From: Polyangia bacterium
GTDB taxonomy: Bacteria; Myxococcota_A; Polyangia; Fen-1088
Length of the DNA stretch: 64,000 bases
Direction: 5' to 3'
Assembly (NCBI GenBank): GCA_035549075.1
Contig: DASZRT010000032.1
Location: forward strand, 48,488-112,487
Shown here one piece after another: positions 19,099 to 23,598 of this stretch (the stretch's first letter is position 1; each line of letters starts with the position of its first letter). The notes under the pieces are model-generated. The model saw only the letters and a list, made by a program, of their open reading frames with translations. It did no database searches and was not told the DNA's origin. Made by a program: the position numbers and the translations under genes.

Positions 19099-20523
19099 CT
19101 AGACTTCGAAGCCGAGTGACTTCAGCTCGGCTTCCAGAGCTTCGAGCTCTTTCCGCACGTTCTCGGGCGCGGGGCCGCCCTTGACGGTGCGCGCGGCGAC
19201 GGCGCGCGCGGGATCGAGCGCCTGCATGACGGCGGGCGTGAGCTTGGGATCGATCGCCGCGAGCGCCTTCGCGTCGAGACTGCGCAGGGATACGCCGCTT
19301 TCGCCAGTCTCCTCTGCGGCGCGCACGAGCTTGCCGACGATCTCGTGCGCCGAGCGGAACGGCAGCCCGCCGCGCACGAGCTCCTCGGCGAGGTCCGTCG
19401 CGCCGAGCGCCGGATCGCCCGCGGCCGCCTGCATGCGCTCGACGTTGAACTCGAGGCTGTCGACGAGGCCGGGCAGCACGGCCAGCACTTGCCGCGCCGT
19501 CTCGACGGCGTCGTAGAACGGCTCCTGCGTCTCCTGCAGATCCTTGTTGTAGGCGAGCGTGAGGCCCTTGCTGATCGTGAGCAGCGCGACGAGATCGCCC
19601 ATCACGCGCGCCGGCTTCGCGCGCAAGAGCTCGGCGATGTCGGGGTTGCGCTTCTGCGGCATGAGCGAGCTGCCCGAGCAGTAGCCCTCGCCGAGGCGCA
19701 CGAAGCCGAACTCCGTCGTCGACCACAGCACGAGCTCTTCGCCGAGGCGAGAGGCGTGCACGCCCATGAGCGCGCACGCGAAGGCGATCTCGGCGGCGAA
19801 GTCGCGGTCGGAGACGGCGTCGAGGCTGTTGCGCGTGGGGCCGCCCTCGAACGCGAGGGCGGCGGCCGTGTTGGCGCGATCGATCGGCAGGCCCGTCGAC
19901 GCGAGCGCGCCCGAGCCGAGCGGTGACTCGCCGGCGCGCTTGGCCGCGTCGAGCAGGCGCCCGCGATCGCGGCGCAGCATCTCGGCGTAGGCGAGCAGGT
20001 GGTGGCCCAGCGTCACGACCTGCGCGCGCTGTAGGTGCGTGTAGCCCGGCAGCAGCGTGCCCGCGTGCTCGCGCGCGCGCCGCGCGAGCGCGAGGCGCGT
20101 GCGGTCGATGCCCGCGACGAGATCGACGCACGAGCGCAGCGCGTAGAGCCGCAGGTCGGTCGCGACCTGATCGTTGCGGCTGCGCGCCGTGTGAAGGCGC
20201 CGCGCCGGATCGCCGACGAGCTCGGTGAGCCTCGACTCGACGTTCATGTGCACGTCCTCGAGCGCAGCGTCCATCTTGCGCTCGCCGCGCTCGAACTCTC
20301 CCGCGACCTGGTCGAGGCCGGCGACGATCGCGTCGGCGTCGGCCGCGCTGATGAGGCCGACCGACGCGAGCATGCGCGCGTGCGCTTGGCTGCCGCGAAC
20401 GTCGTCGCGCAGCAAGCGACGGTCGAAGTCGATCGACGCGTTGAGCGCCGCCGCCGCCGGATCCATGGCGCCCGAGAACCGCGCGCCGCGTCCTCCCGCG
20501 ACAGCTTTCTCCTGCTTCGTCAT
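19099..20523 (-). CDS. argH: argininosuccinate lyase
   Basis: Fumarase/aspartase-family signatures ([21 protein letters not shown]) and the overall ArgH architecture. Confidence 0.9.
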
Positions 20524-20683
20524 GCTGCGCTTTTACCGTTGCGTCTCGCAGAGCGCGACACATTTCGGACGCGTAACTTCGTCACGATCGTCGCGCGCAA
20601 ACGTGGCGCGTGCGCGACCTGCAAGCTACTCTGAAATCGAGGGCACCGTGACCGGCTGGCCCACAAAAGGAGGACAAGAACGC

Positions 20684-20767
20684 ATGAGTAAACGCACCCA
20701 AACGCACGGTACGGATTCTCACCGCACTCTCTCCCGCTTCGGCGCCAAGGAGCCCGGGCGAAGCTGA
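20684..20767 (+). CDS. candidate small ORF (27 aa) with consensus RBS
   Basis: AAAGGAGG sits 8 nt upstream of an ATG (MSKRTQTHGTDSHRTLSRFGAKEPGRS). It lies in a low-GC 514-bp intergenic region with mixed codon bias. Confidence 0.3.
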   Translation: MSKRTQTHGTDSHRTLSRFGAKEPGRS

Positions 20768-20903
20768 GCCTCCAGTTCGACTGACACAGGGTTTTCGAGC
20801 TCGTAGCACCCGAAACCGGTCCCGCGACGAAAGCTCGCGTCAAAGGCCATAAATCGGGCGGCGCCTCGAGGCGCTAGCTCTCGACCAGCCCAATAGCGGT
20901 CCC

Positions 20904-20947
20904 GAAACGCGCCGAGGAGAATGTTCTCCCGGCGCGTTTCCTTTTAG
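20904..20947 (+). terminator. Rho-independent terminator-like hairpin
   Basis: gaaacgcgccgAggagaa-tgt-ttctcccggcgcgtttc: a 17-bp stem with one bulge and a 3-nt loop, followed by cttttag. Confidence 0.55.
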
Positions 20948-21037
20948 AGCAAGTGAGCGCAGCGCGGCTTTGCCGCGCGGAGCGAAGGGGGTTCGGGGGC
21001 ACCCGAGCGAAGCGAGCGGTACCCCCGACGACTACGA

Positions 21038-21811
21038 CTACGATGCGCGCTTGACGCGGAGGCCGTTGAGCTCGTCGAGGAACTTCGCCGTCGTCTCGAT
21101 GCTGTTCTCGAGCGACTCGATGACCAGGTTCAGCAGGCCGTCGTTCTCGAAGCGCAGCACCTCGTAGTAGCGCTGACGATCGATCGAGTGGATGACCGCC
21201 GGCAAATAGCCGTGGCGAATCAGGATGTAGTTCATCAGCAGGCGCGCCAGCTTCCCCGAGTTCTTCGTCCACGGGTAGATGTTGAGCAGCCGGAAGTGCG
21301 CCTTCGTCGCGCGCGTGATCGGGTGCAGCTCGTTGAACTCGTCCGAGTGCATCCACTCGTCCAGCTTCTTCATCTTCGCCGTGATCTTCTCGGGCGGCGC
21401 GATCTCGTGATAGTAGAGCCGGTGCAAGGGGTTCTCCTTGCGGAACGGGAAGCCCTTCGCCGCCGCCTCGGGCGTGATGAGCCCGTAGAGCTTCTTGATG
21501 AGCTCGAGGTCGATGGGCGTCGGCTTCTTGCCCGAGTTGGCGTCGCGCACGAAGTCGACGGCCAGCTTGTGGTTCCGAACCTCCTCGTACATCGGGATCA
21601 GCGTGACATCACTGATGATGCGCTGATCGATCGCGGCCTTGAGCTCGGAGTACGAGAGGACGACGCCCTCGAGCGCGTTGTCGTGGAAGATCCACGAGAC
21701 ATCGAGACGGTCCTGATACGTTTTGAGGATGCTCGCCGGGAACGAATTCTGCTTCCCACGCAAACTCTCCATCTTGGCGTCGAGCTCGAAGAACTTCGCG
21801 TCCATCCCCAT
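21038..21811 (-). CDS. Fic-family protein with degenerate catalytic motif
   Basis: AHFRLLNIYPWTKNSGKLARLLMNYILI aligns to the Fic core a-H-x-x-f-x-x-IHPFxDGNGRxxRLLmNxlL. The catalytic His is Tyr here, and D, N and R of DGNGR are K, S and K. Confidence 0.7.
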   Translation of the reverse strand: MGMDAKFFELDAKMESLRGKQNSFPASILKTYQDRLDVSWIFHDNALEGVVLSYSELKAAIDQRIISDVTLIPMYEEVRNHKLAVDFVRDANSGKKPTPIDLELIKKLYGLITPEAAAKGFPFRKENPLHRLYYHEIAPPEKITAKMKKLDEWMHSDEFNELHPITRATKAHFRLLNIYPWTKNSGKLARLLMNYILIRHGYLPAVIHSIDRQRYYEVLRFENDGLLNLVIESLENSIETTAKFLDELNGLRVKRAS

Positions 21812-22112
21812 CTCCTAAGTTCCTTCCTTTTGAACGTGGCGAGTTCCGGGATTAACGAGGGGCCGGTTCAGTTACCAGCAGCGGGAAATCGTATTTCGCG
21901 AGAACCCTTTGGTCAAGCGGGGTTAGGAGACTTTTTCCCCAGGTTACAGAGTCTGGCCGACGTGTCTTGTTGCTTCCAAGTTTCGGGATGTCAGGGCCCT
22001 CACCACGTAGATCGCGCTTTTTGCAGGGCCAAAGCACCCGCACCAGCTGGCGGACTTAGATTCGTAGAGCCGATATACATAAAATCATTAGAAAATTCGC
22101 CTTGTTCAAAAC

Positions 22113-22140
22113 TTGACTCGCCGCCCTCCTGGGCAAGAAT
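22113..22140 (+). promoter_or_regulatory. candidate sigma70-type promoter of the dcw cluster
   Basis: TTGACT (22113-22118), a 16-nt spacer, then AAGAAT (22135-22140). It ends about 8 nt before the rsmH ATG and is preceded by an AT-rich stretch. Confidence 0.3.
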
Positions 22141-22148
22141 GACCGGAC

Positions 22149-23102
22149 ATGCGGGCCGAGCGCCGTATCGCCTCCGGTCCCGGTGCCCCAGACGCATCGG
22201 TTGACGGAATTCGGGCGCTGCACGAACCGGTGCTGCTGCAAGAGGTGCTCACCTACCTCGAACCGCGGTCTGGCGGCCTTTATTGCGACGGGACCGTCGG
22301 CATGGGCGGACACGCGCGCGCGATCCTGGAACGGGCCGCGCCCGACGGGCGGCTCGTCGGCATCGATCGCGATCGCGACGCGCTCGCCGAGGCGAAGGCG
22401 ACGCTCGAGCCGTTCGGCGATCGCGTCACGCTGGTGCACGCGCCGTTCGCGCGCGCGCGCGCCGTGCTCGAAGAGCTGGGCGTCGTGCCGGTCGACGGGT
22501 TCCTCGTCGACCTCGGCGTGTCGTCGCCGCAGCTCGACCGCGCGGAGCGCGGCTTCTCGTTCCGCGGCGCGGGTCCGCTCGACATGCGCATGGATCAGAG
22601 CGGCGGCGAGACGCTCGCAGAGCTGCTGCGACGCGTGGACGAGGGCGAGCTCGAGCACATCATCCGCGAGTACGGCGAAGAGCGGTACGCGCGCCGCATC
22701 GCCGCGGCGATCATGCGCGAGCGCGACGCGCTCGACTCGACGGCGGCGCTCGCGGCCGTCGTCGCGCGCGCGATGCCGGCGCACGAGCGGCACAAAAACC
22801 CGGCGACGCGCACGTTCCAGGCGTTGCGCATCGCCGTCAACGACGAGCTCGGCCAGCTCGCGTCGTTCCTCGACGGCGTGACCGACTGCCTCAAGCCGGG
22901 CGGCCGGCTGTGCGTCATCGCGTTTCACTCGCTCGAGGACCGCATCGTCAAGCAGCGGCTGCGGCGGCTCGCGGGCAAAGACGGCAGCGGGCCGGCGCGC
23001 CTGCGCCTGCTCAACAAGCACGTCGTCGTCGCCGGCGAAGAAGAGCGCCTGCGCAACCCGCGCGCGCGATCGGCGAAGCTGCGCGCCGTGGAGAAGCTCT
23101 GA
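22149..23102 (+). CDS. rsmH: 16S rRNA (cytosine1402-N4)-methyltransferase
   Basis: HEPVLLQEVL...DGTVGMGGHARAIL...VDLGVSSPQLD are MraW motifs. First gene of the dcw cluster. Confidence 0.9.
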   Translation: MRAERRIASGPGAPDASVDGIRALHEPVLLQEVLTYLEPRSGGLYCDGTVGMGGHARAILERAAPDGRLVGIDRDRDALAEAKATLEPFGDRVTLVHAPFARARAVLEELGVVPVDGFLVDLGVSSPQLDRAERGFSFRGAGPLDMRMDQSGGETLAELLRRVDEGELEHIIREYGEERYARRIAAAIMRERDALDSTAALAAVVARAMPAHERHKNPATRTFQALRIAVNDELGQLASFLDGVTDCLKPGGRLCVIAFHSLEDRIVKQRLRRLAGKDGSGPARLRLLNKHVVVAGEEERLRNPRARSAKLRAVEKL

Positions 23103-23103
23103 C

Positions 23104-23598
23104 GTGAGCTCTCCCACGGCGTCTTCGATCGTCGAGACCGACGCGCGCCACCGGCGCGGCATCGGCGTCGGCGCGTTCCTGCTCGCGATCGCGACGGTGG
23201 GCGCGGTCGCGCACGTCGGCGTGCGCGGGCAGGGCATCGAGGTCGCCTACGCGCTGGGCCGCGAGAAGCAGATCAACACGAAGCTCGAAGAGGAGCGGCG
23301 CCGCCTCAACATCGAGATCGGCATGCTCAAGGATCCCGTGCGCGTCGTGAGCTTCGCGCGCGACAAGCTCAAGATGGGCCCGCCCGCGCCGGCCGACATC
23401 GTGCGCCTCGTGCCGGGGCAGGTGCTGGGCGCGCCGCCCGCCGTGACCGCGCCGGCCGCGCCGAAGCGCGCGCCGCGCAGGCCGGCCGCCGCGAGGCCCG
23501 TGGTCGCGAAGCCCGTCAAGGTCGAGGCGAAGGCCGCGCCCGCATCGGAAGATGCGCCGGCCGCCGACGAGGCGCCGCGAACGGACGGTGACGAGTGA
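23104..23598 (+). CDS. ftsL: cell division protein FtsL-like
   Basis: Position between rsmH and ftsI. A single TM (GVGAFLLAIATVGAV) followed by a coiled coil, with a Pro/Ala-rich C-terminus. GTG start. Confidence 0.6.
   Translation: MSSPTASSIVETDARHRRGIGVGAFLLAIATVGAVAHVGVRGQGIEVAYALGREKQINTKLEEERRRLNIEIGMLKDPVRVVSFARDKLKMGPPAPADIVRLVPGQVLGAPPAVTAPAAPKRAPRRPAAARPVVAKPVKVEAKAAPASEDAPAADEAPRTDGDE

Follow-up and report, generated by a model that had tools for sequence, protein, structure and literature searches.

In the 64-kb stretch of DNA analysed here (the window), the gap between argH and a gene for a Fic-domain protein appears to hold a stand-alone gene on the plus strand, at about 20640-20945, whose product would be a structured RNA of roughly 305 nucleotides (nt) that doubles as mRNA for a translated open reading frame (ORF) of 27 codons. 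We assign this reading a probability of about 0.6. It was reached, as were all results below, by comparing the sequences of metagenomic contigs from one clade; this comparison demonstrates the conservation of the RNA as a unit, its strand, a covarying secondary structure, the terminator, the length and frame of the short ORF (sORF) and the linkage to argH. The RNA is undescribed and clade-specific and a member of no described family, and we found no description of an equivalent in the literature. An earlier reading of the window, made without any relatives (the sequence-only reading), had picked out a Shine-Dalgarno (SD) sequence with a 27-codon ORF at 20684..20767, both of which we find in place, and an intrinsic terminator further downstream. 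What it missed is that ORF and terminator are, on the comparative evidence, parts of one structured RNA: the stretch of ~180 nt that separates them folds into a domain of several covarying helices. The parts of the unit are as follows.

20603-20608, plus strand: -35-like box GTGGCG (TGGCG core), conserved, with a presumed promoter role
20627-20632, plus strand: -10-like box TACTCT, of the form TAnnnT
20645-20649, plus strand: 5' strand of helix P1, ACCGU, pairing with GCGGU at 20896-20900
20654-20659, plus strand: 5' strand of helix P2, GGCUGG, pairing with CCAGCC at 20885-20890
20667-20674, plus strand: Shine-Dalgarno sequence AAGGAGGA (SD1), invariant in the nine loci found through argH
20684-20767, plus strand: sORF MSKRTQTHGTDSHRTLSRFGAKEPGRS, 27 codons and the stop TGA at 20765-20767
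20734-20761, plus strand: hairpin H1 (CCGCUUCGG / CCGGGCGA), within the 3' part of the ORF
20769-20773, plus strand: anti-SD-like CCUCC, 1 nt past the stop codon
20786-20903, plus strand: match of the 3'-domain covariance model R1 (53 bits, E = 6.7e-10), the sole match in the window
20790-20817, plus strand: hairpin A, GGUUUU/GAAACC, with CGAGCU in its loop (20796-20801)
20818-20848, plus strand: hairpin C/D, outer stem GGUC/GGCC and inner stem GACG/CGUC, with AGCUCG in its loop (20832-20837)
20856-20880, plus strand: helix P3 (GGGC/GCUC) around hairpin E (GCGCC-UCGA-GGCGC), from the 3'-domain alignment
20885-20900, plus strand: 3' strands of P2 (20885-20890) and P1 (20896-20900), from the consensus structure and pair counts
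20904-20945, plus strand: intrinsic terminator, a 16-bp hairpin followed by UUUCCUUUU

The unit was found at 79 loci, comprising the window itself, nine loci reached through argH homologues, and 69 metagenome contigs retrieved with a degenerate pattern built on the SD/ATG block; as this pattern fixed the SD, the ATG and the motif AAACG in the 69 contigs, the independent test of these features lies in the nine argH-derived loci. The first relatives were fetched through argH homologues with 89-94% identity, and the more distant argH-linked loci have 76-86%. In the argH-linked relatives, a core of ~330 nt is far better conserved than its flanks, exceeding even the first codons of argH. The sequence-only reading had proposed to check whether ORF and hairpin are conserved in relatives; conservation extends to the entire unit, with an ORF of 26 or 27 codons in 71 of 75 complete copies. 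Within the window the SD/ATG pattern occurs once, compared to no occurrence in 100 shuffles, and the unit is single-copy both there and, as judged by one R1 match per locus, in its relatives. A scan of viral contigs with the SD/ATG pattern gave no matches, and a mobile-element or phage origin was rejected for a unit that is single-copy and syntenic.

argH is transcribed divergently in every locus with enough upstream DNA, save for the copy L119, and its ATG lies 98-298 nt from the ATG of the sORF. On the downstream side, every locus examined has a convergent gene. At many of them it is the Fic gene, which is nevertheless dispensable, being absent from at least nine; at one distant argH-linked locus (L087) it is replaced by a gene with an asparagine-synthase domain, and at further loci by others. 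Beyond the clade the unit was not seen: four distant Myxococcota (L002-L005; Kofleriaceae, Myxococcales or Deltaproteobacteria, with ~60% argH identity) carry none upstream of argH, where other genes abut argH, and a profile search upstream of argH in distant genomes (L001-L080, of which L006-L080 are mostly alphaproteobacterial) returned a truncated L001 as its sole match.

Putative ends of the RNA can be placed on the sequence. Upstream of the unit, 62 of the 67 unique regions share the arrangement TGGC[GC]-N18-TAnnnT, in which the spacing is fixed at 18 nt and the hexamer ends 45-51 nt ahead of the sORF ATG. We infer from this a sigma-70-like promoter that would drive the RNA from a start near 20639-20641. 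A consensus promoter scan found none at the RNA unit, because the -35-like box is weak, agreeing with TTGACA in three of six positions. At the other end, the sequence-only reading had described a 17-bp hairpin followed by a T-run at 20904..20947; hairpin and T-run are indeed present, though the stem counts 16 bp with one bulged A. Its outer part pairs GAAACGCGCCG (20904-20914) with CGGCGCGTTTC (20930-20940), its inner part GGAGA with UCUCC, and TTTCCTTTT follows (20937-20945), such that a GC-rich hairpin and a U-run on the transcribed strand, the hallmarks of an intrinsic terminator, are both found at 20904-20945. A simple terminator scan overlooked this hairpin because the T-run of the window copy is interrupted. 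Among relatives the stem ACGCGCCGG...CCGGCGCG is conserved while the loop varies, a T-run of T6-T9 follows in most loci, and 4 of 11 pairs of the terminator helix are compensatory in the alignment of the full structure. An imperfect palindrome that had been noted upstream, tcgcgcgc-N9-gcgtgcgcga, exists at 20591-20617, yet only its centre AAACGTGGCG is conserved in relatives.

The strand of the folded RNA had to be established separately. The window copy folds better than expected as a single sequence (z = -3.06), and its minimum-free-energy structure recovers P1 and P2, but the reverse strand folds about equally well (z = -2.95), which means that folding energy alone leaves the strand unsettled. 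In the supported helices, however, G-U pairs exceed A-C combinations by 39:14 and 66:22, or about 3:1, indicating that the folded RNA is the plus strand. This bears on the possibility that the conserved element belongs to the minus strand, as a riboswitch-like 5' leader of argH or an intercistronic region between Fic and argH, with the plus-strand ORF and terminator as mirror artefacts. The constant proximity of argH, the shared minus-strand orientation of Fic and argH in the window and the good fold of the reverse strand would all fit such an element. We nonetheless consider it very unlikely: besides the G-U excess, the T-run follows the hairpin on the plus strand only, the TAnnnT box, the SD, the ATG and the ORF of fixed length are all on the plus strand, the unit is kept where other genes replace Fic, and argH has a promoter-like box of its own.

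Of 63 unique loci, 55 have this box, a TAnnnn hexamer whose end lies 5-9 nt (mode 6) from the argH ATG, and 51 have a TGn extension ahead of it; in the relatives (L081-L157) it reads TATAAG, TATGAG or TAGAAG. No SD precedes the argH ATG, and the position of the box suggests that the argH mRNA is leaderless. With such a promoter just upstream of the argH ATG, the two transcripts diverge. The sequence-only reading had proposed a short plus-strand transcript antisense to the argH promoter region; the transcript itself is supported by its own boxes, its terminator, the G-U test and the conserved ORF length, but it would run divergently from argH rather than antisense to it. In most relatives the two promoters stand back to back within about 30 bp, and they may compete or share a regulator.

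We derived a consensus structure with RNAalifold from 33 non-redundant copies and then counted pairs. In the full structure pairing holds in 97.5% of the cells, and compensatory changes occur at 15 of 43 pairs, compared to 6.9 ± 1.4 in shuffles (0 of 500 reach 15) and 2-5 in slid controls; an automated all-against-all search of column pairs for helices proved too noisy for use. The two long-range helices join the region ahead of SD1 to the region ahead of the terminator. P1 is paired in 97.6% of cells, with two of five pairs compensatory (UA<->AU, CG<->UA), and P2 in 100%, with an A-U<->G-C exchange at one pair (27 vs 6 sequences). H1 is paired in 95.5% of cells and has compensatory changes in four of eight pairs, one of which occurs as GC, CG, UA and AU. 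Its 11-nt loop exposes a second SD-like motif, AAGGAG, at 20747-20752 (codons 22-23), which is conserved in both size classes of the unit. What sets the classes apart is an insertion located after the stop codon and ahead of hairpin A; the length of the 3' domain stays at 114-124 nt.

An alignment (A7) of the 3' domain made with the covariance model shows compensatory changes at 17 of 20 pairs, although the fitting of this alignment to the model's structure inflates such pair counts. Hairpins A and C/D were located by anchored parsing. Hairpin A has been rebuilt in different lineages as GCGUCC/GGACGC, GGUUUU/GAAACC, ACGUCC/GGACGU, GUCU/AGAC or CGUC/GACG, and in the 3'-domain alignment all six of its pairs are compensatory, as are all five of hairpin C/D. 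Hairpin E, again with five of five pairs compensatory, is paired in 99% and P3 in 97% of cells, and one P3 pair occurs as GC, GU and AU. The loop of hairpin A (CGAGCY) is complementary to that of hairpin C/D (RGCUCG), suggesting a kissing-loop contact. It is paired in 97.7% of cells, compared to 4-52% in slid controls, and two of its six pairs covary (CG<->UA, both terminal); this support is real but modest.

No known RNA family accounts for this fold. The Rfam scan that the sequence-only reading had suggested gave no family: Rfam 15 has no match with E <= 10 inside 20524-21037, and in ten diverse relatives there was no match within the element at E <= 1, the lone sub-threshold match, to Actino-pnp, lying outside it. 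ARAGORN reported neither a tRNA nor a transfer-messenger RNA (tmRNA) in the whole window; unlike the tag ORF of a tmRNA, which has no start codon, the sORF has its own SD and ATG.

The sORF shows the marks of a translated frame. SD1 sits 6-10 nt ahead of the ATG across loci, and 9-10 nt ahead in the window, where a spacer of 8 nt had been stated. The ORF has 27 amino acids in 56 and 26 in 15 of the 75 complete copies, while its stop switches between TAA, TAG and TGA but is never lost. The 26-codon class differs by a 3-nt deletion; insertions add one codon in L109 (28) and four in L124 (31), and L086, despite an insertion of 10 nt, still terminates within 4 nt of the usual place. Generally, indels within the ORF are multiples of three or compensated +1/-1 pairs, whereas just outside it any length occurs. 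Among single-nucleotide codon differences the synonymous share is 0.43 in frame 0, about double the 0.21 and 0.26 of the other frames, which hold stops in most copies. Synonymous variation is seen at R4 (CGC/CGT/CGA), G20 (GGA/GGC/GGT/GGG) and E23 (GAG/GAA). Frame, length, stop and a synonymous excess are retained, as in protein-coding small ORFs, though codon periodicity is weak and the GC content at third codon positions (GC3) is 0.68. The maintained length, the switching of stops and the compensated indels make it probable that the frame is translated.

The peptide itself is less constrained. Alignments between the classes require one +1 and one -1 indel ~40 nt apart, and as a result the central ~14 residues are read in different frames in the two classes, from nucleotides that remain ~75% identical and still total 27 codons. 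We read this as a sign that the length of the ORF and the position of its stop matter more than most of the peptide sequence. The peptides are hydrophilic and basic, with a grand average of hydropathy (GRAVY) of -0.68 to -1.56 and an isoelectric point (pI) of 9.5-11.7, and have no hydrophobic stretch; six diverse ones had no match in NCBIfam and only a chance-level match to Galanin (E = 0.14) in Pfam.

Besides the dependence of the 69 contigs on their search pattern and of the 3'-domain counts on their model, several observations weigh against a structured RNA that is also translated. The periodicity over codon positions is weak (entropy 0.79/0.87/0.94), and the GC3 of 0.68 compares to 0.90-0.93 in the neighbouring genes. 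The most conserved residues fall on RNA motifs, K22-E23 on the AAGGAG loop and F19-G20 and R26 on the H1 stem, such that amino-acid conservation could be a by-product of RNA conservation. As to the proposed control of translation by the fold, SD1:CCUCC pairing is not the predicted dominant state of the window's own copy, the anti-SD is placed differently in the two classes (CCUCUUC 70-85 nt past the stop in the long class), and the pairing shows no covariation, which cannot test it because the SD is invariant.

From these observations one could argue for a purely non-coding, structured small RNA (sRNA), in which AAGGAGG and CCUCC merely form the two sides of a helix, the loop motif AAGGAG serves for example as a protein-binding site or pairing seed, and the frame is incidental. 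Low GC3 against about 0.92 for genes, weak periodicity, a peptide middle that changes frame over similar nucleotides, residues that coincide with RNA motifs and the absence of a protein-family match all point in this direction. Chance alone, however, would have to keep the frame open for 26-27 codons in 71 of 75 copies, replace stops without losing them, catch the frameshift of L086 within 4 nt, restrict indels inside but not outside the ORF and double the synonymous fraction in just the frame that is free of stops; we therefore regard this account as possible but doubtful. Conversely, the unit could be an ordinary small-protein gene with the basic peptide of 27 residues as its sole product and an RNA structure that tunes mRNA stability or translation. 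The perfect SD, the conserved ORF length, the synonymous variation at R4, G20 and E23 and the synonymous excess in frame 0 agree with this, but an mRNA stabiliser would need far less than a 3' region of ~180 nt that contains a kissing loop and 17 covarying pairs out of 20, conservation is lacking over most of the peptide, whose 14 central residues switch frame between classes, and the codon usage is unlike that of the genome's genes. We consider this an improbable explanation. The sequence-only reading had offered small protein, cis-acting leader and sRNA as alternatives; the first and the last need not exclude each other, as fold and reading frame, going by the patterns of substitution and indels, are both under selection. 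As no co-oriented gene follows in any locus, a cis-acting leader is unlikely.

The same gene order speaks against a leader-peptide attenuator, which would regulate how often transcription passes the terminator and reaches a gene beyond it. The resemblance to such a device lies in the short ORF with its many rare codons, in the alternative structures behind it and in the intrinsic terminator. Yet the next gene is convergent in every locus, leaving nothing to attenuate, the terminator lies about 140 nt or more past the stop codon with a stably folded domain in between, and the ORF has no run of codons for one amino acid. Gene order thus largely refutes this explanation, which we regard as barely credible.

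Returning to the dual reading of RNA and message, the sequences around SD1 suggest how the fold might govern translation. In the short class CCUCC starts 1-4 nt past the stop codon, and partition-function calculations predict it to pair with SD1 in most members. Alternatively, CCUCC could pair with the AAGGAG loop of H1, forming an H-type pseudoknot around the stop codon. In the model that we infer, the fold would gate access to the SD. Transcription would start at the sigma-70-like promoter, back to back with that of the probably leaderless argH, and stop at the intrinsic terminator. P1 and P2 would bring together the sequences immediately ahead of the ribosome-binding site and of the terminator, enclosing the SD and ORF, the hairpin with the AAGGAG loop, the CCUCC anti-SD and a three-way 3' domain with its kissing loop. 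In the off state CCUCC would pair with the SD and ribosome access would be gated by the fold; in the on state CCUCC would be diverted, for example to the AAGGAG loop. Ribosome transit over an ORF of fixed length would then remodel the RNA, and the RNA, the short basic peptide or both would act elsewhere in the cell, possibly in connection with arginine metabolism.

A bolder version of this model is a translation-sensing riboregulator, in which the ORF is a device for ribosome transit, CCUCC is switched between the SD and the decoy AAGGAG, and the passage of ribosomes remodels an active kissing-loop 3' domain, the whole being wired to arginine biosynthesis through the back-to-back promoters. 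It draws on the fixed length and stop of the ORF, on central codons that can shift frame and on codons that are rare for a genome with 92% GC3. We hold it to be speculative and on balance unlikely; if true, it would represent a new class of RNA sensor, with an ORF enclosed in an aptamer-like fold.

A related architecture is known from the mRNAs of type I toxins (hok, aapA1 and relatives), with an ORF of ~30 codons, a 5'-3' interaction, an anti-SD of the CCUCC type and a strong terminator (PMC5416894, PMC6733600). In the unit described here, P1 and P2 likewise join the leader to the 3' end, and SD1:CCUCC pairing is predicted in most short-class members. One may thus ask whether it is a toxin-antitoxin-like module, in which the mRNA of a toxic peptide is kept inert by 5'-3' interaction and SD sequestration and an antisense RNA is the antitoxin; an antisense gene overlapping the 5' part could account for the very high conservation of its nucleotides. 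However, the peptide is strongly hydrophilic as well as basic (GRAVY -0.7 to -1.5, pI 9.5-11.7) and has no hydrophobic helix that could span a membrane, the element is single-copy, strictly syntenic with argH and absent from viral contigs, no antisense promoter/terminator pair was noticed, and the G-U pairs favour structure on the plus strand. We therefore consider a toxin-antitoxin module highly improbable.

By analogy, the nearest functional category for the dual RNA would be that of the dual-function sRNAs, with architectural echoes of type I toxin mRNAs. Few such dual-function RNAs are known (PMC8916003). Like SgrS/SgrT, RNAIII/delta-haemolysin, SR1/SR1P, Spot 42/SpfP and AzuCR, the unit would be transcribed on its own, from a dedicated promoter to an intrinsic terminator, as a short RNA that combines a conserved structure with a translated ORF in the range of 15-45 codons. 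Among them, SR1 of Bacillus has a link to arginine metabolism. Unlike these RNAs, however, the unit has its ORF inside a domain closed by long-range helices, the central sequence of its peptide is unconserved, it is confined to an uncultured Polyangia clade, its regulatory activity is only presumed, and, with no Rfam match, it is homologous to none of them in sequence or structure. With leader and arrest ORFs (trpL-type, TnaC, SpeFL) it shares rare codons and the conservation of length and stop position over sequence, relative to RNA structures; but it has no downstream gene in cis and no amino-acid codon run, and its ORF lies within a folded RNA whose terminator looks constitutive. The raiA, OLE and ROOL motifs resemble it in their multi-helix covarying fold, kissing-loop contact, narrow taxonomic range and conserved neighbourhood, whereas the unit carries a conserved, SD-led ORF and matches none of their Rfam models.

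If confirmed, the unit would represent a new family among the few bacterial RNAs that are both structured and mRNAs of small proteins, and the first such dual RNA from Myxococcota. Its layout is unusual, with an ORF inside long-range helices followed by a kissing-loop domain, two SD-like motifs and one anti-SD, and a frame length that is conserved despite compensated frameshifts. It would thereby offer a tractable case for asking whether a tiny ORF can be translated as a signal rather than for its protein. The pairing with a probably leaderless argH suggests that arginine biosynthesis may be under an unrecognised layer of control in these soil bacteria, a large group that is uncultured. The covariance model and the pattern are of practical use for annotating metagenomes at a place where gene callers leave the gap empty or fill it with spurious ORFs.

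Such calls were seen in two relatives, where ORFs of 38-42 amino acids were placed on the RNA strand just upstream of the sORF (L082, 4874-5002; L084, 4840-4956). The one in L082 ends in a TGA that overlaps the sORF ATG (ATGA), and the conserved 27-codon ORF was missed by the callers; the called ORFs differ among close relatives and look spurious. Some copies of the unit depart from the common form. L119, the sole copy without argH upstream, keeps the promoter, the SD and the first ~14 codons and then diverges; its ORF has 22 amino acids and its 3' domain is missing (no R1 match), and it could result from chimeric assembly or be a fragment left by decay or duplication. In the subgroup of L088, L131 and L125 the distance from the ATG to the GACCAGTC motif is 324-391 nt, compared to 199-282 nt elsewhere, with additional sequence within or before the 3' domain and R1 matches that span 157-176 nt. 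L088 also has GAGGAG instead of AAGGAG in its H1 loop.

The neighbourhood of the unit in the window comprises the following features.

19099-20523, minus strand: argH, flanking the gap, with its ATG at 20523
20530-20535, minus strand: -10-like box TAAAAG of argH, ending 6 nt before the ATG and outside the RNA
21038-21811, minus strand: Fic-domain gene, on the other flank of the gap
22149-23102, plus strand: rsmH, first gene of a cell-division/cell-wall cluster

The nearest protein matches of the window are metagenome-assembled genomes labelled Polyangia (Myxococcota), and the gene order rsmH <- -> Fic -> [RNA] <- -> argH is kept in many relatives. The gap had been called a low-GC island, which agrees with a GC content of 0.63 over its 514 bp, compared to ~70% for the window and 0.72 for argH. 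The Fic gene also has a low GC content of 61%, yet its GC3 is 0.93, such that amino-acid composition rather than recent acquisition would explain it; a horizontally acquired low-GC island was rejected on these grounds. The lowest GC content, about 52-57%, is found in the divergent region between Fic and rsmH (21812-22148), where the only two consensus promoter matches of the scan are located. A 393-residue ORF at 22056-23237 (minus strand) overlaps the genuine rsmH, has no Pfam match and is a typical shadow ORF of high-GC DNA. Two minus-strand ORFs that reach into the gap (20520-20843 and 20874-21356) had no match in a Pfam scan, and they are not conserved, because the indels in the variable hairpin are not multiples of three.

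Between the RNA terminator and the Fic stop, at 20953-21037, the window has two more GC-rich hairpins, GCGCGGCTTTGCCGCGC and GGGGGCACC-CGAGCGAAGCGAGCG-GGTACCCCC. The GGGGG...CCCCC type of hairpin is not enriched within the window as a dispersed repeat would be. Similar GGGGG...CGCKCGCTKCGCKCGC...CCCCC hairpins are found behind the terminator of several relatives (e.g. L096, L097, L104, L123, L126, L146 and L149). They have a T-run on neither strand, and they may serve as the terminator of the Fic gene.

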